DNA from: Narcine bancroftii
Taxonomy: Eukaryota
Assembly (NCBI RefSeq): GCF_036971445.1
Contig: NC_091469.1
Span: 353,152,001-353,216,000 of the forward strand
Reading direction: 5' to 3'
DNA length: 64,000 nucleotides
The position numbers were made by a program, and so were the translations under genes. Each line of letters begins with the position of its first letter. Position 1 is the stretch's first letter. A model generated the notes under the pieces. It was not told where the DNA came from. It ran no database searches and saw nothing but the letters and a program-made list of their open reading frames with translations. Below, piece after piece: positions 8,661-62,816 of the stretch.

Positions 8661-8839
8661 AGTGAATGTTATTTGTGTTCCTGAAGCAGAACTTGCAGCC
8701 AGAAAGGAGATGATTTCATGATAATTGTGATTTGACTGCAACATTATACCAAATGAAATTTACAACAGGTTAAATTAACTTCCGTTCTATAGGATCCAAT
8801 TTATAAACATAACTTCTAAATCATTAAAAAATATCATAC

Positions 8840-10168
8840 CTCTGGTAGTCTTTGCAATGAAGATAATCCATATGAGTTGAACTTTTTCAGCACTGCTTGA
8901 ATGTTAGTTTTTTTCAGAGTCTGTTCAAATCTATCATATTCCTGAACATAAGTCACTTTACTGCATTCTTTTCCTGGCATTTTAGCAGATAAATTCAATG
9001 TTGAATCAAGGAAAATCTCATTGGTATTCAGCAGTCCATAAATAACCTGGCGAATATTCAATGAACACCTGTGACTGCTGGTCCTACGCATATTTTCTAC
9101 CTGAGCAGGGAGGAAAGTTCTCCTCAAGGTCAAGCAGTCACTAAGAAATGGAGCCAATTCTCCTCTCAAGAGAGCAACTAACATCCACTCTGGGGCTTTG
9201 CTGGCCAACACAGTGGGAACATGGGGCCTGATGTCCTTGTTCTGAAAGTACGTTGCAAGATCCACTTCTGACTGAGTGTATTCATCCATATGAAAATATA
9301 AAAGTTCTCTGATCTTCTCATGTTCACTTTGCTTTATGTACCTCAAAATGTCTTCTATTGCCTCCTTTGGTTCAGAAAACCCAGACAGCCAGTTCAGGAG
9401 CCCTTGAATTCGCACATTCTTCCTTCCTGCTGAAGTCCTTGCATGGAAATGTACTCTGGTGAAAATGTTCTCCAAAGAGGGAAGATTAATATAATCATTA
9501 CCATTCAACACAGCAAAAAGTGGAAGAAGAGCTTTGTTCATGTGATTAAAATAGTTGCAGAAATTTTCAATTGAGAAACACTGAGCCGAAATATAGAATT
9601 TTGAATGATCTTCCAGACTACATACATTTTTCCACTTGAAATAATTGAGGGGACAATAACCAGCCTTCAAATCAAAGATACAGAAGTCACTGTCCAGTGT
9701 TAGGACAGGGCAATTCCATTGATTTGCAAGAGCGACAATGTCGCGGTCTGCTTCAGAATGACATTGGACAAATGGTATTTGCAACTGCACTAAAACTTGT
9801 TTAAAAACTTCTGGTGCAAGGAGCGGCAGAACTGTACCTCCTCCACCCCTCAAAATGGAGTGTGCCTTTATGATTTTGTCCCTGGCACGTTCTTTGATGG
9901 TTTCAATTTTTTTATCACTATAGTCGCATCCACCATCAAAAATCACATATGGTGAAATATTACATTGTGACAGAGATTCAAAGAATTTACAGATGATATC
10001 TCCAAATGAATCATATTCACCTCCATATTTAAGATCCAAATCTGAGTCAAAATAAAGTCTGTGAAATAAGTTATTGCCGTCAATTATAATCCTAACATTA
10101 TGCAATGTTATATCATTAAAAAATTGATGATTTTCTCCAATGTAGGACATCAATCCATGGATACCCAT
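8840..10168 (-). CDS. ASTE1: ASTE1 first (large) coding exon, XPG/PIN-like nuclease N-terminal region; exon spans 10191-8840
   Basis: 443 open codons starting MGIHGLMSYI, with IIIDGNNLFHRLY, YVIFDGG, EADRDIVALANQWNCPVLTLDSDFCIFD and LFAVLNGNDY motifs. Acceptor ctttcttacttag| before 10191 and donor GAG|gtatga at 8840. Divergent neighbour is NEK11, as in mammals. Confidence 0.95.
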
Positions 10169-11799
10169 GTTGTGCTGTGATCGCCTTCATCCTAAGTAAG
10201 AAAGAGAAACAAATTGGGATTGTTAGATCACATATGAATACCACATATGAGGTACAAAAGCAGTCATGCAGCCAAATAAACACAAATAAGTCAATATCTA
10301 TTTTCAACTGTTAAATAATTTTAACACAACTCAATATTGAATGATTTTACCACAGCTCAACAGAAATTTGGAGTATGCCATAATTTCCATTTCACTCCTC
10401 CCGTGGGAGTAGCCACATTTATCCACCTCAACTTTGGCATGAGCTCATTCATTTCAAGAAATTACCATAGGCATTGTATTCAAACATTCGAACCAGCCTC
10501 TGGGGATCTACAATCACCACTGTCCACTTGCACTTACTTTTTTTCTCTCCCCGATGATATTTGATAATTTGCAAACTGAAATTGTCAATATTGATTGCAA
10601 AAGTTACATTTTGAAGATCATGGAAATATGAAATCCAACAGATGTTTGGAATACTCAGAACTGATGAAAGGTTATTTCTGTTCTATCTTGATAGAGGATA
10701 CATGAAAGCATTTATCCCATTCAAAAATACCATACTTTTAGTTACAACTTTTTAAATATATTAATGTACTTAGAAAATGTGGTAGCAATTCCAGTCTTCA
10801 AAAATCCTTGGATATAGTTTATAAATTATTTTAATGCAAGATTTTAAAATTTAGAATCTTTCATATAGAACACCATCTAATATCACGACAAGGGTGTGGT
10901 GAAAAACAAGTAATCAAAAGGAAATACTTCACAATAATAACTACACGAAAAAAAACTTCACTGAGGCTTTTGGCAATTCAAGGTTGTGATATAAATATTA
11001 AAAAGGATGGAAGCAGTAGTTTTCACTGGCAAGGCTATGCCATTCGACTTCAGAGAACGAAGATAGCTAATGCTGGTAAATTGAGATGCTTTCTTTCAGT
11101 GAATTAGACAGAAGAATCCACAAAAAGGCAGTGTCAAAAATGTAATGTGGTAATTACACAAGTCAAAATTACAAGGTGATGGTGTTAAATCAGGGTTGAT
11201 ATTTTCATGTTTTAGTTACACTTAAAGGATATATGTGCAAAGGCATGCTTGGAGATTTAACCTCAAAACAAAGGTACAAGCTATATTTCCTTTAATATTA
11301 TGAATATTCCAAGGGTTAAACCAAGCTTTAATCCCCTGAAGAGTTACAGTTAGGGGATTTCAGCAATTTTGAAATCATTTTGATAGCCGAGCCAGAGAAA
11401 AAGAAACTGGGCATTTGTCAGACAACATGAAAACCAAAGCCTGGATATTAGGAGAAAAACTCTTCAAAGTCTGAATCAAAATCCTGAATTGGGGGAATAA
11501 TTCTGAGAAGGTAGAAAAAAATTGTAAGTCACAAGATGCAGGGACTTGTGTCTGGTGCGATGCTGGTGTGAAAAATAAGCATGCTTAATAATAAATGTTG
11601 GTACAGATTCTTCCCCTCCACTTTCAGATTTCTGAAGGAACACTGAACCTCTGGACACTACCTCACTTTTTTTGAAATATTCCATTCTTTTTATTGTTAA
11701 TTTTTACACCTTCTTCTGCACAATACTGCTATAAAGCGACAAATTTCATGTTCTTGACAATAAACCTGATTCAAGAGGCGCTACTGTTTGGAACAAGGT

Positions 11800-15210: not shown

Positions 15211-16326
15211 TATTGCACCCAGGGCATTGTTTGAGGTCATTGCCACCGACATATAAGCAGCATTCTTGGCGTAGGGCTTCCTTTTCTCAGTGGGTGGGCA
15301 GGTAGGTGCATAGCTGAGAATGAGTCTGTGCAAATGCAGAGAAGATGTACGTCATTTTTAATTAAAAAAAATAGTTTGACCCGTTTGGTTTGAGAAACTG
15401 ATGGAAACAAAGTATAATTTCTGGCGGAACAAGGAAGTCTGCAGGTGTTGTGAATGTAGTTTAATTATACTCAGCGGGCCACGCGGCATTCGTTGTGTAG
15501 CAACGATACATACCAATGTTTCCATTCAGGCGCCTTGATCACGGGCTCAGGTCTGCAAAGTTGGGTATGTATCGTTGCGACGTGAAGAACGCTGCGTGAC
15601 TTGCAGAGTTCCTCCGGCACTTTTGTGTATAATTTCCAGTTAGTATCTCGTTATATTTATAGAGATTTGACCGTATTAGCTGCTCTTTTTAGTTTGGTTT
15701 GCAGAGTCCAGCAAAAATCTATATTCGTTCAGTAATTAGAAAGGAATTAACTGGTTTTATTGAAAAATCTTCCGTTTTCCGATGATCAGCTATTTCTATC
15801 AGCGAAGAAGAATTCCGTGCAGTTCCTCCACTCCATCAAAATGCTTTAAAATGCCGTTTTGATTTCTCCTCCGTCTTTTGTTGTGGGATCCGTGGAACCT
15901 TAAATGGGAACAACAACCTGTTGCACGGTCCAGTTGGGTTTGCAACACGAGTTTCAAGCACACAAGTTGACTTCTGTGAGAAAACGAGCTGCTGGGGGAA
16001 CTCCGCGTCCAACAGTAGAGAGGCAAACAGCTGCTTTGTGTAAGTAATAGTATCTCCTTTCTCAATTAAAGTTTCGACCCGAATGATTGACAATTTTTAC
16101 CTGGTCAGAGTTTCTTCAACAGCTCATTTGTTTGTTCAAGGTTATGGTACCTACAGGCTCTTTTTTTTCACACATTTCTATGTTTGCCATTTGTTTCCCT
16201 TGGAAACTTTGGCAACTTTTAATGACGACATGCTAGTCCAGGTCCAAGATTATCGCTATGAGTAGGTGCTGGGGAAGGCTTGACAACTGTTTTTAGGAAA
16301 AGTGCAACTAAGTTTACGGTCTCAGA

Positions 16327-19300
16327 GTGGTACACCTCCGGCCTACTGCAGGGGGCAACCTCTGTGCCTGCAGGAGTGTAAGGGGACATGACAACACCTG
16401 GCCAGCTGTCAATCAGTCGGCCTGAATGGATCAAGCCCCACCCGGTCGGGTGTCAATCACCCTCCAGGATATATGCCTGCGCCGGCCTCCCAAAGTCTCA
16501 CTCAGTTACTGCAGCTACAGCCAGCCTGGCTCTGTGGAAGTCTTTGTGGATTAAAGCCTGTTGTACAGTCTTTACCTTGTGTGTGTCTGATTCAGGCTAA
16601 CAGCACACGGCAATATAATCCACAAAATTTTCCCACGGCTGCCATGGAAAACTCCTGAGCGGAGGGAGCCTTGAAGTCGACCCACATCACCCAGATGCCC
16701 AGACACGCTTTGAGATCTGGCAGCACATGGTCGAGGTAATCATCGAAGCACACGAAGGCAGTATCCTGGACTCGGATCAGAAGAGGTTGGACCTACTCCG
16801 GTCAAAGCTGGGTCCCCGCGCCATCCAGGCAACCAAAGGCTGCTTCACGTACAAGAGCGCAATGGACAACCTCAAGAACTTGTACAAGCCCCCCATGAAT
16901 GTGGTCTGTGCAAGGTACCTCCTCAACACCCGAGTCAGCAACCCGAGGAGATGACTGAGTCTTACCTGGGACACCTGCGAGAGTTGGCCTGACCATGTTT
17001 GGCTGAACCCGGGCTACGCTCGAGGGCCATCCAGCAGAGGCTGCTGGAAGACAATATCTATGCCCTAACCAAGATAGTGGAAGTGGTCCAAACCCTGGAA
17101 GCGGCAGCCCTGCACATCGATGCCTTCGATTCCAGCTTCCCTCATGGCCCTCTCACTCTGCAGTCCCAGACTGAACTGGAGACGAGAACATAGCTGTGGC
17201 AGGTGCCCGGCGCCCCTTGAAGTACTCTGGGTCCTGGTGTGGATCAGACTGACGATCGCACCAAAACTGCCCAGCTAGGAACCTGTACTGTTCCCGATGC
17301 GGTAAGAAAGGCCACTTTGCTAAAGTATGCCTCTCAAAACCAACCGGCAGCTCAGCGGCCCTCTATGACCTCCCCCCCGGACCCCTCCATGTGCACGTGC
17401 TGGGCAGTGCCATTGTCCCCGCTACAACTTGTGCAGTGTCCGGCCCCGCCAGTGATGATTGCATCGTGTGCCCTGAGCACCTGGACCAGCCCTCGCCAGC
17501 GCAGCTCACCGAGAACCAGAACCAAAGTGATGTCACTTCCGGCTGAAGTGATGACTTTACTTCCCTGGCGCAACGAACATGGCTGGGGAAGGAGGCCAGC
17601 CATGTGGCGGGACCAAAAATGCCGCTGCCATCTTGGGCCAGGCAGTGGCCGACACAGAGGGCCCCTGACGACGATGTGGTCAACACGAGCGATGACCAGG
17701 CTGCCCCACCGATACACCCCACACCTCTGGGCGTCATTGGTTGCCACACGTCACCCCATGACCGACGTCGATGTGGTCAACACGGGCGATGACCAGGCCG
17801 CCCTACCGACGTTCCCCACGCCTCTGGACACCGTAAACCACTGCACACAGCCGGAGAGTGACAACTCCAACCCCGAAATGGTCCTGGCTGCAACCACTCT
17901 GACCAGGGACATCCCTCACGACCTTGGGCGCTCTATGATGGGTGTGCAAGTCAATGGGCAGGTAACAAAGTGCCTGTTCAACAGTGGCAGCACCGAGAGC
18001 TTCATTCACCCGAGTGTGACCCACTCCCTGAGATTAAAAGTCCACCCCACCACCTGCTCAATCACCCTCGCCACCAAGGATAAGACTGTTGATACCCTTG
18101 GCATTGCTCGGCCAATATAACTGTGAGAGGGGAGACCTACACGGGGTTCAGGCTCCTGGACATGCCCAAACTCTGTGCCCCAGTCGTCCTGGGCCTGGAT
18201 TTCCAGTGCCAGCTGTGGAGTGTCACCCTTGTCTTCTGTGGGACACAATCTCCACTCAAGTTGCACAGCGCGCCAACCTACCAGTCTCAACCAACCTGTG
18301 GCCTCTCCACACTAAGCATCACCCCACCGGCACTCTTCCCACATCTTACACTAGGTTGCAAGCCAATCGCTGCCAGAAGTAGGCACTATTACACCGCAGA
18401 CAGAGACTTCATCAAGGCGGAGGTGCGGCGACTCCTGGTAGAAGGTGTCATAGAGCCCAGTAACAGCCCTTGGAGAGCCCAAGTCCTGGTGGTCAAAGGG
18501 GAAAATAAGCCGAGGATGGTCATGGATTACAGCCAGACCGTTAACTGGTACACCCAACTGGATGCCTACCCCCTGCTGAGAATAGCCGACATGGTCAACG
18601 AGATAGCCCACTACCGGGTTTTCTCCACGATTGACCTGAAGTCGGCGAATCACCAAATTCCCATCCACCAGTAGGATAAACCCTACATAGCCTTTGAGGC
18701 AGATGGGCACCTATACCAGTTCCACCGTGTTCCCTTTGGGGTCATGAACAGGGTTTCCATCTTCCAGCGGGAGATGGATAGCATGGTAGACCAGCACAAG
18801 CTAAAGGCGACGTTCCCGTATCTGGATAGCGTCACTTTCTGCAGCTGTGACCAGCAGGACCATGATGCTAACCTGGAAAAATTCCTCCAGACGGCCACTG
18901 AGCTGAACCTCACTTACAACAAGAAGTGTGTGTTTAGCACCACCCGACTCGCCATCCTGGGGTACATCGTGGCCCATGGGGTCATTGGCCCAGATCCAGA
19001 AAGGGTGTGTCCATTAATGGAGCTACCTCTTCCCCCCCATGCTAAAGGCCCTCCGCAGGTGCCTTGTCCTATTCTCCTATTACTAACAGTGGGTCCCTCG
19101 CTTCTTGGACAAGGTCTGCCCACTGGCCCAAGCAACAACTTTTCCCCTCCCACCCGAGGCGCAGGCACCCTTCATCCGCATCAGGCAGGACGTTACGGAC
19201 GCCACAATGCAGGCCTTGGATGAGGACTCCCCCTTTCCAGGTGGAGAGCGATGCCTTCGAGGTAGCCCTCGCCGCTACCCTCAACCAAGGGGGGCACCCC

Positions 19301-22942: not shown

Positions 22943-24044
22943 TGTGTTGACCTTTAATTTAATGTTAAACTATTTATTTTATAAAAATGTGTTGGTAAAG
23001 TAAATTATAGTTAAAATGTTGTATCTGTATTCTTAGTAAGTTAGCTATGGGTTGGTACAAGGTCACAGCACATTTATAAAGAACTATTTTCTGAGAAGTG
23101 TGTTCATTCTCAGAGTCGATGCGTCTTGGACAGACAGCTAATTTATTTCAAGTAGGGCTTAGTTATGCAAGAACTGCTGATGAAGCCATCTGTTTGAAAT
23201 CAAAGCCACTTAAGCCTCTTGAACAGAGAGGAGACCAGAGTTTGTTATTTGTATAGAATAGTTTTGAAAAAGGAACAGAGTTTTGGTAGAAATAAAACTG
23301 ATGGTCATGTGGTTTTCAAGAATTGGGACTCCCCTCTGATGATGTAATGGTCACATGATTTGGAGAAATATATGACTAAATTCAGACATTTTGAGTTCAG
23401 TTTTGGAAAAGTTCACTTTGGACAGAAGTCAAAACCCTATGCCTTGTGAAAGACAGGGTTGAGCAACAGTAACCAGAATTGTTGCTGTTGTGTGTTACTC
23501 CTGGGAAAAGAGAACACAGAATCAGTAGCTTTTGATTTAAGGAAGACCATTTTACTGTCTCTTTGGAAAAGAACAGATTTCTATTTTTGTGTTTGGCCAC
23601 TTCGCTTAAACCTTCTCTGGTTTGTGACTTCATCGTGGAAGAAAATAGCCACTTAGTTTAACCTGTGTCTGCGTTTCTGACTTCATCCTGGAAGAAAATA
23701 GCCAATTCGTTTAATCTGTGTCTGGGTTTCTGACTTCATCCTGGAAGAAAATAGCCACTTCGTTTAACCTATCTCTTGGTTTGTTAATTAATTTGGGGGA
23801 AAAGGTGAGTAAAGAGGCCTGAATATATAATGTTTAAAAGCACTTTATAATTATTCTGAACTAAGAATTTAAGACCTTCAAGCAAGACTAAAATGATGTT
23901 GAACTTTTGCTTACGCACACACAGTGAGGTTAAGTTTAGAGATGAGTAAGAAATGTTATGTTAATAGTTTAATTAAAAACTATTATTTTGAATTAACCAT
24001 TTGCTGGTAGATTTTCCATTCCTGTTTCTGTGTTGGTGTGAACA
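22943..24044 (+). mobile_element. Solo LTR (about 1.1 kb) with about 52-bp internal tandem repeats
   Basis: TG...CA ends; organisation resembles the 7555-8486 LTR; unit GCCACTTCGTTTAACCT...TGACTTCATCCTGGAAGAAAATA repeated about 3.5 times at 23595-23780. No TSD seen. Confidence 0.6.
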
Positions 24045-36792: not shown

Positions 36793-36978
36793 TCCTCACT
36801 GACAAAAGGCAAAGGAGGAAAAACCCAACACCCAACCCCAACCCACCAATTTTCCCCTGCAGCCGCTGCAACCGTGTCTGCCTGTCCCGCATCGGACTCG
36901 TCAGCCACAAACGTGCCTGCAGCTGACGTGGACTTTTACCCCCTCCATAAATCTTCGTCCGCGAAGCCAAGCCAAAGA
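36793..36978 (+). mobile_element. RTE-clade LINE 3' end
   Basis: Closely matches 61048-61230. Confidence 0.88.
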
Positions 36979-43029: not shown

Positions 43030-44270
43030 TTAAAAACACAAAAGTTCTGGAGGAACTCAGCAGGTCACTCAGTGTCCATAGGAGATAAAGATATATAACC
43101 AAATGTTTCGGGCTTGGGCCCTTCCTCAAGGTACGATCAAAAACCAGGCAGCCACCTGGATAAAAAAGCTGGGGGAGAAGGGAAGAAAGGGAAGGGGAGG
43201 AGCACAAACCAACGGGCAAAAGGCCATATGGTCTCAATGCAGTTAAGATCACAAGACGCAGGAGCAGAAATGGGCTATTCAGCACATCCAAGTTTGTCTT
43301 TACATTTAATCATGACCTGATCTACCTTCCCACGGCCCTGCTGCTTGGCATCTCCCCATAATCTTTGTTGCCCTGGTTAATCAAAAATCTAGCAATCTCT
43401 GCCTTAACTGCACCTAATGACCTGGCCTCCACAGAACCTGTGGCAACAGTTCCACAGATTTACCACTCTCTGGCTAAAGAAATTTCTCTTTATCAATGCC
43501 CTTCAATCCTGAGATTGTGCCCTCTTGTGCAACCTTTCCATATCTACTCTGTACATGGCTTTCAACATTCAAAATATTTCAGTAAGATTCCCCTCATTTT
43601 CCTAAATTCTAAAGCGTACAGGCCAAGAGCGTCAAATGCTCCTCATGTGATAACCCTTTCATTCCTGGACAATAATAGGAGGACAGGAAAGGAAAGAGAT
43701 TTGATCAGGGAGGTGGGCTGTTCTGTGAATATAGAGCTGGAGAAAAAGAGACAAGGACAGGGAAAGAGAGAGACAGAAATGGAGGAAAGGAGATATAGGG
43801 ATAAGGAGAGATTGGTGGGGGGGGGGGTGGAAATTGGGCCTAATGGAAACTGGAGAAGCCAATGTTGATGCCTTCTAGTTGGAGGGCGCCCAAATAGAAT
43901 ATGAGGTATTGTTCCTCCAATTTGTGGGTGGTCTCAGTCTATGGTTGAGACTGTGGACAGACATATTAGCATGGGAATGGGGCAGGGGATTGAAATAGGC
44001 TGCCACTGGGAGATCCATGCTATTCCAGTGGACAGAGTGATTCTCAACGAAGTGATTTCCCAGTCTGCATTCAGTCTCTCCAATATAGATGAAGCCACAA
44101 TGGGAGCACTGGATGCAGTAGATGACCCCTGCAGATTCACAAGTGAAGAGTTGCTTCACTTGGAAGGATAGTTTGGAGTAACAAATGGTGGTGAGGGAGG
44201 AGGAGATGTGGGCATAAGTCGCATTTCTTGTGATCATAAGGGTCGGTACCAAGGGGACGATTGGTGGGAA
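43030..44270 (-). mobile_element. Penelope-like element 3' part (GIY-YIG endonuclease) with an inserted CR1 fragment (about 43245-43670)
   Basis: FQVKQLFTCESAGVIYCIQCSHCGFIYIGETECRLGNHF is a Penelope GIY-YIG signature. Confidence 0.8.
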
Positions 44271-46524
44271 GTTCAGCCCAACCACAAAAGAGCAGGAGAA
44301 CAAGACTAATTAGATAGTTCTTCTAAGAGGCAGTGGAGAACAAGTAGTTTTTGATGTCCTGTGAATGTAAGAAATGTGGCAAATATTTTGTGTACTGCAA
44401 GCTCTCACAAACAGTAAGAATAATTGGATAGCTAGGACACTGAGGATAAACCTTGCTCTGGAAAATAGTGAGGCAGATTAGATGCATTCACCTGAGAGAG
44501 AAGTTGGAACTTTTGATACCTTGTCTCAAATCCAGCACCCTATTGGGTCAGCCAGCCCAGAGAATTGTATTCTGCTCTTTTGAGCCCACACCTTCTGAAT
44601 CTGAAGGATGTTGCAGCCACTGAGACTTTAGCACTCTGTAGTCTCAGAATTGTACAGCACAGAATCTGGCCCTTTGACTCACTACCTTCACACCAGCAAG
44701 TGCTCCTGCCTACGATGATTCCACTTACTCCATTTAGTTCAATTTGTTCTAAGCCTTGGTGTCTGGTAAGACTGAACATTTTAGCTTTGATCAGTTGGGA
44801 TGTTTCAGTACATTTCTCAAGCAGGATATTTCCATCCAGTTTTTAAACTGCTGGGAGAATATAATGTCATCAATTGACTATCAAATACCTCCGCTATGTG
44901 GACTACATTACTCTGAAACAAAATGACTATGAGATATTTAAAATGTTGACACAGATGTGTTGAGGCAGTTCTAGAAATCTTTGGAGGTCGGTCTGAGTTT
45001 GTCACAAATTCTGACAATGGTCCCATCTCCGATCAGAGCTGTAGGTGCTCACTCCTCAAATAATATGAATGAAGAGGTGAAATTAGTCAAAGAATTAATT
45101 TTAAGATTTATGGCATGCAATAGACTAAAGAGGCGTTCATATAATTTCATGAGTATTTTCTCAACTGAATAACAATTCGCTCTCGCTGGAAAGTCAGAAT
45201 ACCTGAATTATTGTGCGTGGTTGCATCACCCCCTCGGAAACTATTGTTTTATCTACTGTGCATCTCTTCAGATTTTTTTTTGTTAATCTAAATGGTTTGT
45301 CACGCTTTACTTTGTTTTCCTCCCTATTTGGGTAAAAGAGTGTCATTTTTCATTTTCCAATTGAATGGAACCTTCCCTGAATCTAGGTACAGGTCCTCTA
45401 ATTGTTAGAAAATCATGACTTATGGTCATCTGGTACCTGTGTTTTGAGGGCTGGTGGGATAGGTGGCGCTGGATTTACTGCAGGCTTGGTGTCATGGTGG
45501 TGGGGGTGGCATTTGAGGGTCATGGCTCCCCAAATGAGTTATGTCCTCCCACCCACCTGCAGCACTAGTGTCACGTGGTTTTGTGTCCACACACTCTGAG
45601 CTTGTGAGTTTCTCTGTTACATTGGAGGGAGGGGGAAGAGTGACACTGGCACACAGAGGTGGTTCATGGTAGGTATGGTATCTACTCTCCTGCTACTGAG
45701 TGAGTCTTTGAATGTCATTTTGTACCCCACAATTAGACTTGTTCTGACCCCAACTCTGATTTGCTGGCTGCTGTGGGGTTGTAGACATCTTCTACTGAAT
45801 GCGAACGGGTTTTTCTTCTCCCCTTGTCCCCTGTTCCTCCTCCCCAGAGTCACAAGAATTGAGGCTGAGTCAAGCCGAGCGGGCTTGCTCACTAACTAAG
45901 TCAGTGAGGTTGGCTGGGGGTCACTTTCCCTATACCTGCTTGCTCTCCATCACCTGTTTCTGTTATCCTCTCCCACTCATGGTCTTTGTTCACTTCTGCT
46001 TTGTGAATGGATTGGGTTCTCAGGAACTGAACTCTGACATAACCTGAACACTGCCTGGAATTTGAGAAAACAACCAAAGCATCAACTAATACACTAGCTC
46101 CACGGTAGCCAACCTTTAAATTTTTAATTAGTTATACAGCATGGTAACAGGCCATTTCAGTCCACAAATCTCCGCTGCCCAATTAACCTACACCCTGGTA
46201 CATACTCGAGGGCTGAAATGGCCTGTTACCGTGTAATATAACTAAATTAAAAAGTTGGCCATTCCTGCACTACCTGTTAATGTTGTGCGATGAAGCCTAT
46301 TGCCACTCAACAATTTATCAGTCTGCGAGTCCAACGATTTGCTCAATACCACTGAATTGGTGATAGTAATTTTTCTTAATTCCTCTCCCCCTTCCAATTA
46401 ATGAAGTGCACCTTTTTCTGGGATGTAATGTTTATCCTCTAGGAGGTGAAGACTGTTGCAAAATATCTGTTTAATTCATCTACCATTTTCTGGTCTTTCC
46501 AGTGAGGTAAATCTAATGTAGTCT

Positions 46525-52800: not shown

Positions 52801-53228
52801 GGAGTGGAAAGCTGGAGGAAAGGAGACTGAGGGAGAGGGGAGACAGGAGAGTGGCCTAACAGAAACCAGAGAAGTAATTGTTAACACCATCTGGCTGAAG
52901 AGTGCCGAAACAGATATTAGGTGTTGCTCCTCCAATTTACCAGTGGCCTTGGTTTGACAGTGCATGAGGCCAAGAACAGGCATTAAAATAGTTGGTCACT
53001 GAGAGATCCCTGCCATTGATGCAGACAGAGAAAAGTGATCTGTGAAGCAATCTCATAGTCTGCATTAGGTCTCTCCGATGTAGAGAAGATCACAAGAGGA
53101 GCACCAGATGCAGTAGATGACCCCCACAGATTCGCAAGTGAAGTGTTGCTTCTCTTGGACTGTTTGGGCCCTGAATGGTGGTGTTTGGCATAAGTGTAGC
53201 ACTTTCTACTGTCACAAGGGTAGATACC

Positions 53229-56186
53229 TGTGAGTGCTGCTTTGCAAATAATTCTGTCGCAAAGTCCACAGACTGTACAACAGGCTTTAATTAGCTTAAA
53301 CTTGTACACACCAGTCTCAGTATCTTCCTGGCTCCATGTGTCTGACTGTCCCCGAAGGGGCCAGCTTGAGTCTTTATAAGGGCTGGGATTGACAGACGGC
53401 AGGTGGGGCCAGCCTCTCAGGTTACCCACCTTCAGGTACAGTGGTTGCCCCTGCAGTAGGCTGGTAGGAGTGCGGCCAGTGTACTGGTTGTATCACCACA
53501 TTCACCCCCTTAAAATGAACCCTGGGGGTGGGGTTACTGAGTAGTATCTACAAGTTCAGGCTGTCTGGCAGTTGTCTGTGCTTCTGGGACTGCTGCAGGA
53601 CAGGCTCTTGGTCAATGGTCAGTAGGGACAGGGCTGCCTGAGGGCTGGCTGGGTTTGGGCAGGATGGTGTCTGGCAGAGTGGGGGTGTCGGTGGGGAGCA
53701 GGTTTGCGGGGAGTGGGGCCCTCTGGAGAGGCAGAGGTACCAGAGGGAGTAGTAAGAAAAGAGCCCTCGGCACCTGCGGAGGGTCTTGAAAATATGGGGG
53801 AGGGGCAATACCATTAGGGGGCGCATGTATTCAGGATCGGGACCGATGACACTATGTTCCATGATGCTCCCCAGGATGGTGAGGCGGGTGGTCCTGAACA
53901 CTCACTTCTACCTGTAGAAGGTGAGGTTTAGTGCTTCTGCCATCCGGAGGAATCTCTCCAGGTTGGCATCGTGGCCGCAGATGGTGACATTGTCCAGGTA
54001 CGGGAAAGTCACTCTTAGATTGTGCTGCTCTACCATGCAGTCCATCTCCTGCTGAAACATGGAAACTCCATTTGTGACCCCAAACGGGACCCGGTGGAAC
54101 TGGAAGAGGCGTCTGTCTGCCTCAAACGCAGTATAAGGTTTATTTTGGGCATGGATGAGGAGCTGATGATAGGCCAACTTCAGGTTAATCGTGGCAAAAA
54201 CCCTGTACTGGCCTATCTTGTTGACCATGTCGTCGATGCAGGGCAGTGGTTAGGCATCCAGCTGGATGTACTGGTTGATGGTCTGACTATAGTTGATGAC
54301 CATCCTCTGTTTGCTGCTTCCTTTTACAACAAGGACCTGGGCTCTCCAGGAGGTGGTGCTGGGCTCTATAACTCCTTCCGCCAGAATCTGTCTCACCTTT
54401 GCCTTGATAAAGGTTCTGTCGGCTACACAGGTAGTTGAAGAGGGATGGAGCGGGCACCTGCAGGTGGTCTGAGGGCAGTCGCTGGACTTTGTGCTGTGGA
54501 TGGTGAGTGGGGGGAGTGGGCCACCAAAGGTAAGGGTGAGACTGTGGAGGTAACACTGGAAGTCCAGTCAAGTTCACTGAGCAGCACCCTAGTGCCGAGA
54601 TGGAGTGGTCCTTGGCCGCAAAAGCGATAGTGAAGTTTGCTGGGTATACTTTGAGTTTCAGTGTACGGATCACATTTGGGTGCACAAAGCTCTCAGTACT
54701 ACTGCTATCAAACAGGGATTTTATTACCTTCCATTTGACAGCTATGTCCATCATCGAGCGCCCGAGTCAATGGGGAATGTCTTCCTTTAGTGTGGTGGAC
54801 ACTAGGACTGCCTCGGGGACTGAGTTGCTGTTCCCTGATGGTTGTGGCGAGTAGCAGCCAGTGGGTGTCTTTAGGAGCATGGGGCGCAATGAGTGAGCAG
54901 TTTTGTTTGCATGTGTGTTGACCACGCTGTCTGGTCGGTGAGTTGGGGTGGGTGGGGGTCGGCTGGCCCATGATGTAAACGGACATGGCTTCAGCGTGGT
55001 TGGTTGACCTGGCTGTAGGTGATGTCGTCGGTATGGGCGGAAGTTGGATGGTTGGGCCAGACGTGACATCATAGGTGACATCATAGGTAGGGGCGTGGTA
55101 ATGGCGCTGCCCAGCATTCACACGTGGGGGCGCCGAGAGAGTTGGAAGGTGCTCCTGGTCAGTCGTGGATAGCTGTAGCATTCCCAGTGGGTTTGGAGAG
55201 GTACACTTTAGCGAAGTGGCCTTTCGTGCCACGTCAGGAGCAATGCGAGTTCCTCACAGGGGAGTTCTTTCGGGAGCGCCTGTCCAACCCATGCCAGGAC
55301 CCACAGTACTTGGAGTGATGGACTGCGTTGGCAGTGGCAATTGTCTCTTCCATGTGGGGCCCCTCAGTGACTGCTGTTGTCGATGTCAGCCAGGCTGGAG
55401 GTTGGGGGAGGTGAGGATCGAAGACCTTTCCATGGTGAGCTGCAGCTTCTAGGGAGCGGTTCACCTCCATGATCCTGGTAAGGGAAGCATTATTCTCCTC
55501 CAACAGTCTCTGTTGAACCGCCGTCGACTGGAACACTCGCACATAGGCATCTCAGATGAGTCGCTCCACCTCCCTAGCAGTCACCCCAGCTTCAATCATA
55601 CACAGGCGAGCTAGTTCTTGCTGTGCCCCCAGGTAAGCATTTGTCATCTTGCCTGGCTGCTGTACCCTGATGCTGAGCAGGTACCAGGTGTAGTGTATGT
55701 TTGTCGGGGGCTGGTACGTGCCTTCCAGGACAACCATTGCTGCTTCAAAATCCATGGAAAATGTGCATAGTACCATGAGTTTCTTCTGGTTAGTGTTGTT
55801 GACCTCAGCCTGTGTGTGGATGATCACATGATTCCAGATCTTGAAGTATGTTGGAGCGTCTGGATGTTGAGAGTCAATATCCAGCTCTCGAAGGTGAGGA
55901 GCTTCTCCATGGTCATTTTAATTTTAAGCTAATTAAATTGTGAGCGCTGCTGCACAAATAGTTCTGACGCAAAGTCCACAAACCATATAACAGGCTTTAA
56001 TTAGCTTAAACTTGTACACCAATCTCAGTATACTGCTGGGTCCACATGTCTGACTGTCTCGAAGGGGCCAGCTTGAGTCTTTATACAGGCTGGTGATTGA
56101 CAACTGGCAGGTGGGGCCAGCCTCCCAGGTTACCCCCTGCACTAGGCTGGAAGGAGTGTGGCCAGTGTAGTGGTTGATTTACCATA
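53229..56186 (-). mobile_element. Internally deleted Gypsy LTR retrotransposon, same clade as 16327-21091
   Basis: LTRs at 55939-56186 (5') and 53229-53500 (3'); PPT AAGGGGGTGAA; gag ATG at 55910 (MEKLL..LDIDSQHPDA); protease LFDSSS; RT RVPFGVTNGVSMFQ, FPYLDNV. RNase H and integrase absent; no clear TSD. Confidence 0.92.
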
Positions 56187-60184: not shown

Positions 60185-61238
60185 TATTGGCACCTGCAAG
60201 CTCACACCAAGACACAAGAGCAACTTGTCCATGAACTACTCTTTGCAGACGATGCCACTTTAGTTGCCCATTCAGAGCCAGCTCTCCAGCGCATGACGTC
60301 CTGTTTTGTGGGAACTGCCAAAATTTTTGGCCTGGAAGTCAGCCTGAAGAAAACTGAGGTCCTCCATCAGCCAGCTCCCCATCATGACTACCAGCCCACC
60401 CACATCTCCATTGGGCACACTGAACTCAAAACCGTCAACCAGTTTACCTACCTCGGCTGCACCATTTCATCTGATGCAAGGATCGACAAAGAAATAGACA
60501 ACAGACTCGCCAAGACAAAATGCGCCTTTGGAAGACTACACAAATGAGTCTGGAAAAACAACCACCTGAAGAAACACACAAAGATCAGCGTGTACAGAAC
60601 CATTGTCATACCCACACTCCTGTTCGGCTCCGAATCATGGGTTCTCTACCGGTATCACCTAAGGTTCCTAGAACACTTCCATCAGCGCTGTCTCCGCTCC
60701 ATCCTCAACATTCATTGGAATGACTTCATCACCAACATCGAAGTACTCGAGCTGGCAGAGTCCGCAAGCATCGAATCCATGTTGCTGAAGACCCAACTGC
60801 GCTGGGTGGGTCACGTCTCCAGAATGGAGGACCATTGCCTTCCCAAGATCGTGTGCTATGGCAAGCTCTCCACTGGCCATCGTGTCAGAGGTGCACCAAA
60901 GAAGAGGTACAAGGACTGCCGAAAGAAATCTCTTGGTGCCTGCCACATTGACCACCGCCAGTGGGCTGATATCACCTCCAACCGTGCATCTTGGTGCCTC
61001 ACAGTTCGGCGGGCAGCAACCTCCTTTGAAGAAGACCGCAGAACCCACCTCACTGACAAAAGTCAAAGGAGGAAAAACCCAACACCCAACCCTAACCAAC
61101 CAATTTTCCCTTGCAACCGCTGCAAACGTGCCTGCCTGTCCCGCATCAGACTTGTCAGTCACCAAAGAGCCTGCAGCAGACGTGGACATATTCCTCCATA
61201 AATCTTCGTCCGCGAAGCCAAGCCAAAGAAAAAGAAAA
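60185..61238 (+). mobile_element. RTE-clade LINE, 5'-truncated, little diverged
   Basis: ELLFADDATLVAHSE, FGLEVSLKKTEVLHQP, FTYLG, PTLLFGSESW, QLRWVGHVSRM and a C-terminal CxxC..SH zinc motif; one in-frame stop near 60545; GAAA-type tail. Confidence 0.92.
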
Positions 61239-61766: not shown

Positions 61767-62816
61767 AGCCCCTTTCACACTTGCCTCCCACTAAATTGGC
61801 TGTTCAGTGTCCTGGAATAGGAATGGGCATTTGGCTTTTCATACTTGACCAATCCTAAATGGGACTCTGAACGCTTTCATACTTGCAAAGAGCCATCCCT
61901 GGGTTAGGACTGTTCCACCTTCTGCTGGTGAGGTCATGATGCATCGAGTGATGGTGGTCTTGCCCTAAATCCTGATCAATGTGTTATGATCTTATATTTG
62001 AATAAAATTAATTGTGCATAATTAAGCTTCATGTATGAGCCCTTCAGCTCCTGTTGTTGTTGTTGTGCCGACCTATATAATAAACCTTTATAAGGGACCG
62101 TGGAAAGTGCTAGCAATAAATGAGAATAGCGGACAATTTTTAAACAGGGTGGGAAAGTTGGTAGTGCTATAGGGCTCCATTTATACAGTGTGGGAAAGTT
62201 TGTAGGGCTATAACGCATAATTTATATAGCATGGGAAAATTGGTAGCACTATAGTGTACAATTTATAAATACTGTGGGGATTAAACGATGGCAGATCTGC
62301 CCTCCCAGAATCCCATGGGGCAGAGAAAGGCCCAGAATGCCCGGCTGTATACATGGAGCATTCATAGAGGGGTTTCGTGGCCACATGGTATTCTGGGAAT
62401 TCAGGTCTGCTATTTCTCCCCCCCCCCCCCCCCCCACAGTATTTATAAATTGTGTGCTCTAGCGCTACCAATTTTCCCATGCTATTTAAAAATGGTCCGC
62501 TATTGCTATTTATTGCTGTTTATTGTTATTTATTTCCTCCCTTTCTCTCTCTCTTCCTCCCACTACGATTTTCCCACGGCAAAGTTTATACCTTTTTAAT
62601 CTTCCTGCACTCGTGCAAAAATTTGGGTAATTTCAATCCCACAATGCAATTACCCCTTTCACACTTGCCTGATTGCAACGTTGGCATCTGTCGTCAATCC
62701 TCAGCGTGAGATGATGTCATGTGACACCAGTGTTGAGCTGATTTCACTTTCACACTTGCCACTTTAAAGGCCGTTGGTGTTTGATTTATGAGATCACTTG
62801 CAAGTGTGAAAGGACT
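61767..62816. mobile_element. PIF/Harbinger-like non-autonomous element
   Basis: TIRs AGCCCCTTTCACACTTGC / GCAAGTGTGAAAGGACT; internal TTTCAyACTTG repeats. Confidence 0.65.

Follow-up and report, generated by a model that had tools for sequence, protein, structure and literature searches.

The elements described here carry, just past their 5' LTR, a candidate primer binding site (PBS) that is complementary to a segment of that same LTR. The pairing is real, clade-wide and strongly covarying, and it most likely reflects self-priming of the Tf1 type in a separate Gypsy lineage. Our starting point is element 2, one of two related elements in a window of Narcine bancroftii DNA, by which we mean the whole stretch analysed: 64,000 nucleotides, positions 353,152,001 to 353,216,000 of contig NC_091469.1. 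An LTR element must prime its minus-strand DNA beside the 5' LTR, and in LTR elements and retroviruses the default primer is a tRNA. The preliminary description of the window proposed that element 2 has a self-complementary PBS and no tRNA PBS. This extends to the whole clade, with stems at 40 of 46 gag starts from other sources, TGG sites in 0 of 27 families, and at least 15 different arm/PBS pairs within one genome.

An inverted repeat beside the 5' LTR

Recomputing the repeat from the sequence gives exactly what had been described on the minus strand: a segment of the 5' LTR, hereafter the arm, is the perfect reverse complement of the PBS position over 15 base pairs, with a loop of 58 nucleotides (Table 1). 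The details of its position hold as well. The downstream segment begins one base past the terminal CA of the LTR (CA at 55940-55939, then A at 55938), the ATG of gag comes 12 nucleotides after it, and the 3' LTR contains an identical 15-mer that has no local partner, 5 of 15 flanking positions pairing in the same register. The fold of this arm region of the 3' LTR is unremarkable (z = -0.56).

Table 1. Features of the two elements, in coordinates of the window
Feature	Position	Strand	Remarks
Element 1, arm, loop and PBS	16543..16626	+	Arm 16543-16555, loop of 58 nt, PBS 16614-16626; belongs to sister family with another stem core
Element 2, whole	53229-56186	-	LTR to LTR
Element 2, 5' LTR	55939..56186	-	248 nt; 87% identity to 3' LTR over 247 aligned columns
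Element 2, CAAT-like word and TATAAA box	56080..56102	-	Some 90 nt before the 3' end of the arm
Element 2, 5' LTR arm, candidate self-primer	55996..56010	-	Ends in ATTAAA
Element 2, loop, 58 nt	55938..55995	-	Clade motif RCCT at start; LTR end at finish
Element 2, PBS position	55923..55937	-	Exact complement of arm
Element 2, gag remnant	55192..55910	-	ATG at 55910; frameshifts and stops inside
Element 2, protease and reverse transcriptase remnants	53740..54802	-	tblastn
Element 2, polypurine tract	53501..53511	-	AA at end, then TG of 3' LTR
Element 2, 3' LTR	53229..53500	-	272 nt; carries copy of arm at 53300-53286

A complement of a 15-mer is expected by chance about 2e-7 times inside the 248-nucleotide LTR. 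The fold energy of the 126-nucleotide region of element 2 has a z of -1.53, with 12 of 200 shuffles equally good, and the window contains 7 perfect inverted repeats of at least 12 base pairs with loops of up to 150 nucleotides. Given this weak fold score and these other repeats, the argument has to be made from the position of the repeat and from related elements. The further perfect repeats, at 2620-2664, 15500-15578, 46143-46230 and 62655-62813, have stems of 16, 15, 18 and 13-14 base pairs and loops of 13-131 nucleotides.

The corresponding fold of element 1 has a z of -4.36, and its window copy pairs at 12 of 13 positions. Both elements do have the same spacing of 58 nucleotides, as was pointed out at the outset, but this is not independent evidence: they belong to sister families (99/92 support), and loops vary elsewhere, so that the shared length follows from shared ancestry. 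A constant loop of 58 nucleotides was thus rejected as a feature of the clade, the loops being 48-63 nucleotides long in the same genome and 21-70 in the 27 families examined below.

Element 2 is an old, dead and deleted copy, and the argument therefore rests on its relatives. The tblastn match to protein P0006 ends at residue 918 of 1457; all of the integrase and most of the RNase H are missing from this copy. No matching target duplication flanks it, and, also lacking the integrase, it may have arisen by recombination between two insertions. Its TATAAA box predicts a transcription start upstream of the arm, and its loop would be the template of minus-strand strong-stop DNA.

The window has other features of its own. 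Two dispersed repeat pairs lie at 36794-36943 and 61048-61197 (88% alike) and at 44049-44164 and 53044-53159 (80% alike), one copy adjoining the outer side of the 3' LTR of element 2. At least three copies of a tandem repeat with a period of 53 nucleotides, 84-90% alike, occupy positions 23619-23792; a stop-free frame of 450 codons is found at 8834-10186 on the minus strand; and the segment 11833-12962, with 60% G+C and four overlapping open frames, may be a gene or a CpG island. ARAGORN finds no tRNA gene in the window.

Relatives from other sources

Metagenome and MAG contigs yield 90 loci, of which 47 have a match to the gag N-terminus, giving 46 gag starts with at least 110 nucleotides upstream. 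A perfect stem of 10-19 base pairs is present at 40 of these 46, and the gag ATG follows at a distance of 0-30 nucleotides. Among the six starts without a 10-bp stem, those of L078, L129 and L140 have the look of stems in decay; for L088, L098 and the second site of L126, the tests made give no explanation. The stem-bearing loci interleave with named animal proteins in the tree described below. Contigs L141-L150, filed as bacterial MAGs, hold an animal-type retrotransposon, several with LTRs and stem, and are probably host contamination. In L101:138-246, the LTR end and PBS are tandemly doubled, giving loops of 31 and 87 nucleotides to the same arm. A search of viral contigs gave 52 pattern matches, none of them a relative, and a search of the Atlas gave generic gag clusters only.

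Collapsing the loci by eye gives 27 families, 25 from outside loci plus elements 1 and 2, with four stemless sites omitted. The PBS lies at the LTR's CA plus one base in all 27, a register that was fitted to the terminal CA; 25 of the families were chosen after their stem had been seen. There are 26 distinct PBS 12-mers among the 27 families, and none of the families has a TGG site of the tRNA type; the stem is kept in intact members. The preliminary description had also read the joint change of both strands as a sign of selected RNA structure. Covariation is indeed strong: at positions 5-12, 213 of 216 cells are paired, against 118 when partners are swapped among families, and positions 12 and 13 covary too, with 25 and 26 of the 27 families paired. 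Swap shuffles ignore kinship; the variety of pair types is unaffected by it, and reaches three types at most of positions 5-9. However, covariation need not reflect selection on the fold alone, since the pattern also fits a PBS copied from the primer in each cycle.

The composition of the helix is peculiar. G-U pairs number 1 in 294 in the central helix, a figure that is in part a product of how stems were searched for, against 17 in 108 in the adjoining predicted hairpins; the count of 40 perfect stems in 46 is not so affected. AATAAA or ATTAAA closes the arm in 15 families, and the other 12, with ends such as GTTAAA, TGAAGA or GGTAAA, are still paired; most arms end in AAA and most PBSs start with TTT. 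In three families, the unpaired loop contains a canonical hexamer. Directly after the arm comes the motif RCCT (20 of 27 families) and a small hairpin (23 of 27, against a null mean of 12.3 and maximum of 18). The 5' arm is predicted to be paired with a probability of at least 0.8 in 26 of the 27. Position -10 is a G in 25 of the 27 families.

Conservation within the genome

A pattern that fixes the first four pairs and their flanks has 2998 matches in the N. bancroftii genome, against 44 for the reversed control. For the families of elements 1 and 2, we kept the 30 best-scoring of 40 scored copies each, window copies included, taking as register of each copy the best of loops 52-65. Among these best 30 of 40, the element 2 family has 8 perfect stems, 24 with at most one non-pair and 30 with at most two non-pairs of 15, and the element 1 family has 22 perfect stems and 30 with at most one non-pair of 13. 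The latter (L031-L060) shows extra pairs at positions 17-20, past the 13-bp core, kept in 83-97% of copies; a short run of extra pairs is also found at positions 17-18 in the element 2 family.

For a wider sample, 69 loci were analysed from 100 listed: 29 given as loci, after one duplicate was dropped, and 40 hand-picked for diversity. On average, 6.87 of 8 free positions are paired, against 3.84 with swapped partners (maximum 4.35 in 2000 shuffles). The pairing has a sharp end: 71-91% of the loci pair at each of positions 5-14, 30% at position 15 and 9% at position 16, and, within the first 13 positions, 59 of the 69 have at least 11 pairs. At least 15 distinct perfect arm/PBS 14-mers occur in this genome. 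A TATA-like box, a loose motif counted without a control, lies 65-96 nucleotides upstream of the 3' end of the arm in 50 of the 69 loci, which may place the arm inside the transcript. Contigs from three presumed RNA runs show no transcript start, end or poly(A) tail. Many subfamilies among loci L196-L265 have, judged by eye, a short palindromic segment 30-45 nucleotides upstream of the arm, a potential hairpin.

Young copies allow us to follow arm and PBS more closely. In L080, whose LTRs are 99.6% alike, a single base distinguishes the two LTR arms from those of 8 siblings, and the PBS differs from theirs at the matching base. In L071, both LTR arms are changed and the PBS is not, which would fit a lag of one generation; in the family of L071, position 14 of the PBS varies while the arm does not, which suggests a copied length of at most 13. 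Together, the joint change in L080 and the pure Watson-Crick stems (at least 10 base pairs in 40 of 46 unselected starts) point to a PBS copied back from the primer. Young copies with identical LTRs exist, and an exact target duplication of 5 base pairs flanks 8 of the 11 young loci at the boundaries used.

Phylogenetic placement

The clade belongs to the Ty3/Gypsy LTR retrotransposons: it has TG..CA LTRs, a polypurine tract, the target duplication, and, in 4 of 4 full-length relatives, the Pfam domain order gag-protease-RT-RNase H-integrase in a single frame. Pfam finds no chromodomain in these four. Two CCHC arrays are present in 36 of 37 proteins, and the GPY/F motif is missing, with GP[YF] in the last 250 residues of 0 of 37. 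Named homologues come from rays, sharks, crustaceans, a soft coral, a seisonid rotifer and a nematode.

Trees of the RT-RNase H region (376 columns, LG+G4) were computed with a profile built from the clade, partial rows included. The outgroup labels chromovirus-, Mag-, CsRn1- and Gmr1-like are provisional assignments by motif. The stem-bearing clade forms one branch (100/100), outside four chromovirus-like copies. These four rows are partial, and are labelled by PF24626, a chromodomain-like tail recognised by eye, and motifs; the tree holds no fungal Tf1 sequence. When 31 further representatives are added, the clade gains a sister lineage and joins the four chromovirus-like rows at 88/81 only. 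As to independence from the chromoviruses, which the preliminary description left to an RT phylogeny, the clade thus has its own branch and is not nested among those sampled, but sisterhood is possible at this support, and so is a shared origin of self-priming. Chromovirus-like copies (L266, L270-L273) are rare and badly decayed in the genome, where the 150 scored matches include 4 with more than 75% identity. The sister lineage (P0148, P0157, P0161, P0163, P0165, P0167, P0168, P0171, P0172, P0175, P0187, P0209 and P0265) is made up of Gypsy proteins encoded in one frame, which share 32-39% identity with the clade; none of the 9 scanned has a chromodomain match.

The best candidate for a name is Cigr-1, by protein features and by sizes: Cigr-1 has LTRs of about 245 base pairs and one ORF of about 1200 codons, like the clade here. 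Its row in the table of PMC2774666 (Ciona intestinalis, Ty3/Gypsy branch 2) gives two CCHC arrays, an integrase after the RNase H, a lost GPY/F, no chromodomain and no env. All these listed features match the clade; the same feature code also fits part of the Osvaldo clade there (PMC2774666). The papers covered give no priming mode for Cigr-1.

From pairing to a probable self-priming

It is likely that the lineage primes itself by some route. The route that we favour, and that probably operates, is by analogy the one of Tf1: the 5' LTR arm would fold onto the PBS position in the element RNA and prime reverse transcription in cis. This reading starts from what is observed directly, namely the pairing, its fixed register one base past the LTR end, its covariation, the absent TGG and the hairpin after the arm. 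As in Tf1, the RNase H of the element would cut just 3' of the final AAA of the arm; the reverse transcriptase would extend the cut end and copy the loop; the resulting short DNA would jump to the 3' end of the RNA by means of the bases that separate the cleavage site from the poly(A)-like word; and, as the plus strand is made, the arm would be copied back into the PBS. Such copying back would keep the two arms matched. Where the arm holds a poly(A) signal, the helix could also hide the one of the 5' LTR.

Several observations count against the cis route. The position of the TATA-like box predicts a primer of 45-65 nucleotides, with a start 30-50 nucleotides upstream of the arm in this genome, and if the primer is that long, a copy-back halting at 14-15 nucleotides lacks explanation. 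The L071 copy, the six stemless gag starts, the lack of detected pretzel side helices and the dead state of element 2 must also be entered on this side. Two variants were dropped: a primer spanning a splice junction, the PBS matching the unspliced LTR, and a primer of 11 nucleotides starting from an initiator-like TYAGT word (arm positions -13 to -9), since positions 12 and 13 also covary.

The primer might instead be the copy of the arm in the 3' LTR, at the RNA's own 3' end or in a co-packaged RNA, trimmed to its AAA. The arm there is identical and lacks a local partner, the AAA ends and TTT starts are as one would expect, and covariation and copy-back follow from this route just as well, L071 and L080 being compatible with either. 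We nevertheless find it unlikely: the 5' arm is only 21-70 nucleotides away, is predicted to be paired in nearly all families, and should take the PBS first. Poly(A) cleavage normally falls downstream of the hexamer, so that an extra trimming step would be needed.

Could the helix serve to mask the poly(A) signal of the 5' LTR against early polyadenylation, priming being left to other means? The 15 arms that end in a canonical hexamer are in favour of this, as is the partner's place outside the LTR, by which only the 5' copy is masked. We hold it to be quite unlikely as the whole explanation, with 12 of 27 arms ending otherwise and the three families whose canonical hexamer sits in the unpaired loop. 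Moreover, the exact register matters for priming and not for masking, the 0-30 nucleotides before the gag ATG leave no other primer site, and the near-absence of G-U pairs is unexpected in a plain occluding hairpin.

Half-tRNA priming is known in Ty1/copia lineages, according to the part of PMC6317226 that deals with them, and the primer at the PBS might likewise be an internal fragment of a tRNA or a small RNA of the host, the LTR arm being a by-product. The diversity of the PBS already largely refutes this, and we deem it very improbable: the 26 PBS 12-mers of the 27 families and the 15 different ones of a single genome, all of which match the LTR arm of their own element, cannot fit one or a few host RNAs, and a PBS that varies freely among families while always matching its own LTR excludes a fixed one. 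A neutral inverted repeat, matched at the DNA level by template switching or gene conversion, would also yield pure Watson-Crick matches, and the window does hold other perfect repeats, but it is hardly credible given a register and length fixed across 27 families and at both ends of a deep tree, and it would leave primerless elements that have nonetheless produced young copies with identical LTRs and 5-bp duplications.

Meaning

A more ambitious statement is possible, which we hold to be doubtful: a widespread non-chromovirus clade of animal Gypsy elements would have evolved self-priming independently, by means of an internal transcript segment that doubles as poly(A) signal, its helix blocking early polyadenylation, marking the cut of a long capped primer and setting the overlap for strand transfer, all of this undescribed in print. 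A second and abundant self-priming Gypsy lineage, as the 2998 pattern matches against 44 indicate, bears on the question of an ancestral or a repeated origin; that self-priming is ancestral has been raised as a speculation in a passage of PMC3601003. Through the dozens of arm/PBS variants that occur naturally, primer length, cut site and copy-back can be tested by comparing families. Annotation that requires a tRNA PBS would presumably miss such elements, and they would be expected to evade silencing by tRNA fragments.

Comparison with known self-priming systems

In the portions of the literature covered, experiments on self-priming concern fission-yeast elements only, and for the chromovirus relatives of these and for some copia lineages of plants it is a prediction. 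The search brought up no paper that describes self-priming for a non-chromovirus Gypsy clade of animals, Repbase, GyDB and the original Cigr-1 paper lying outside it; the parts of the MolGy/PolGy papers covered contain no PBS passages, and their supplements, as far as searched, no motif match. There is an appreciable, if minor, chance that the clade's self-priming has been described before.

In Tf1, the RNA's initial 11 bases anneal to the PBS and RNase H cleaves after base 11 (as described in PMC7175516), the PBS is copied into the cDNA's 3' end (a passage of PMC11042837), and side helices form a pretzel, a structure of three duplexes (in the account of PMC10085805). Both side helices are at background in the clade (5.70 against 5.69, and 5.08 against 5.05). 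Other differences are that the arm ends in a word resembling a poly(A) signal and is followed by a local RCCT hairpin, and that in this genome, as predicted from the TATA-like box, it is probably not at the start of the transcript. The Tf1/sushi group also differs by protein: the clade here has no chromodomain, no GPY/F and two CCHC arrays, and its RT-RNase H branch is separate. For Tf1 itself, a chromodomain is present according to a passage of PMC10085805 and absent in the table of PMC2774666.

The Ty1/copia TAR lineage (Houba, Osr-1) and Tcn1 of non-seed plants also have a PBS complementary to their own LTR, predicted from sequence in the relevant part of PMC6317226; these are plant copia or chromovirus elements, whereas the clade here is an animal, non-chromovirus Gypsy one. 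The closest likeness is with Tf1 and Tf2 of Schizosaccharomyces pombe, Tj1 of S. japonicus and the Tf1/sushi chromoviruses, which lack a tRNA PBS as the clade does, and in which the PBS just past the 5' LTR complements an LTR segment of similar length, 11 nucleotides in Tf1 (according to the relevant passages of PMC7175516, PMC4600332 and PMC10085805). The clade, too, appears to have no tRNA PBS, and its putative PBS complements at least 10 nucleotides of a segment of the 5' LTR.
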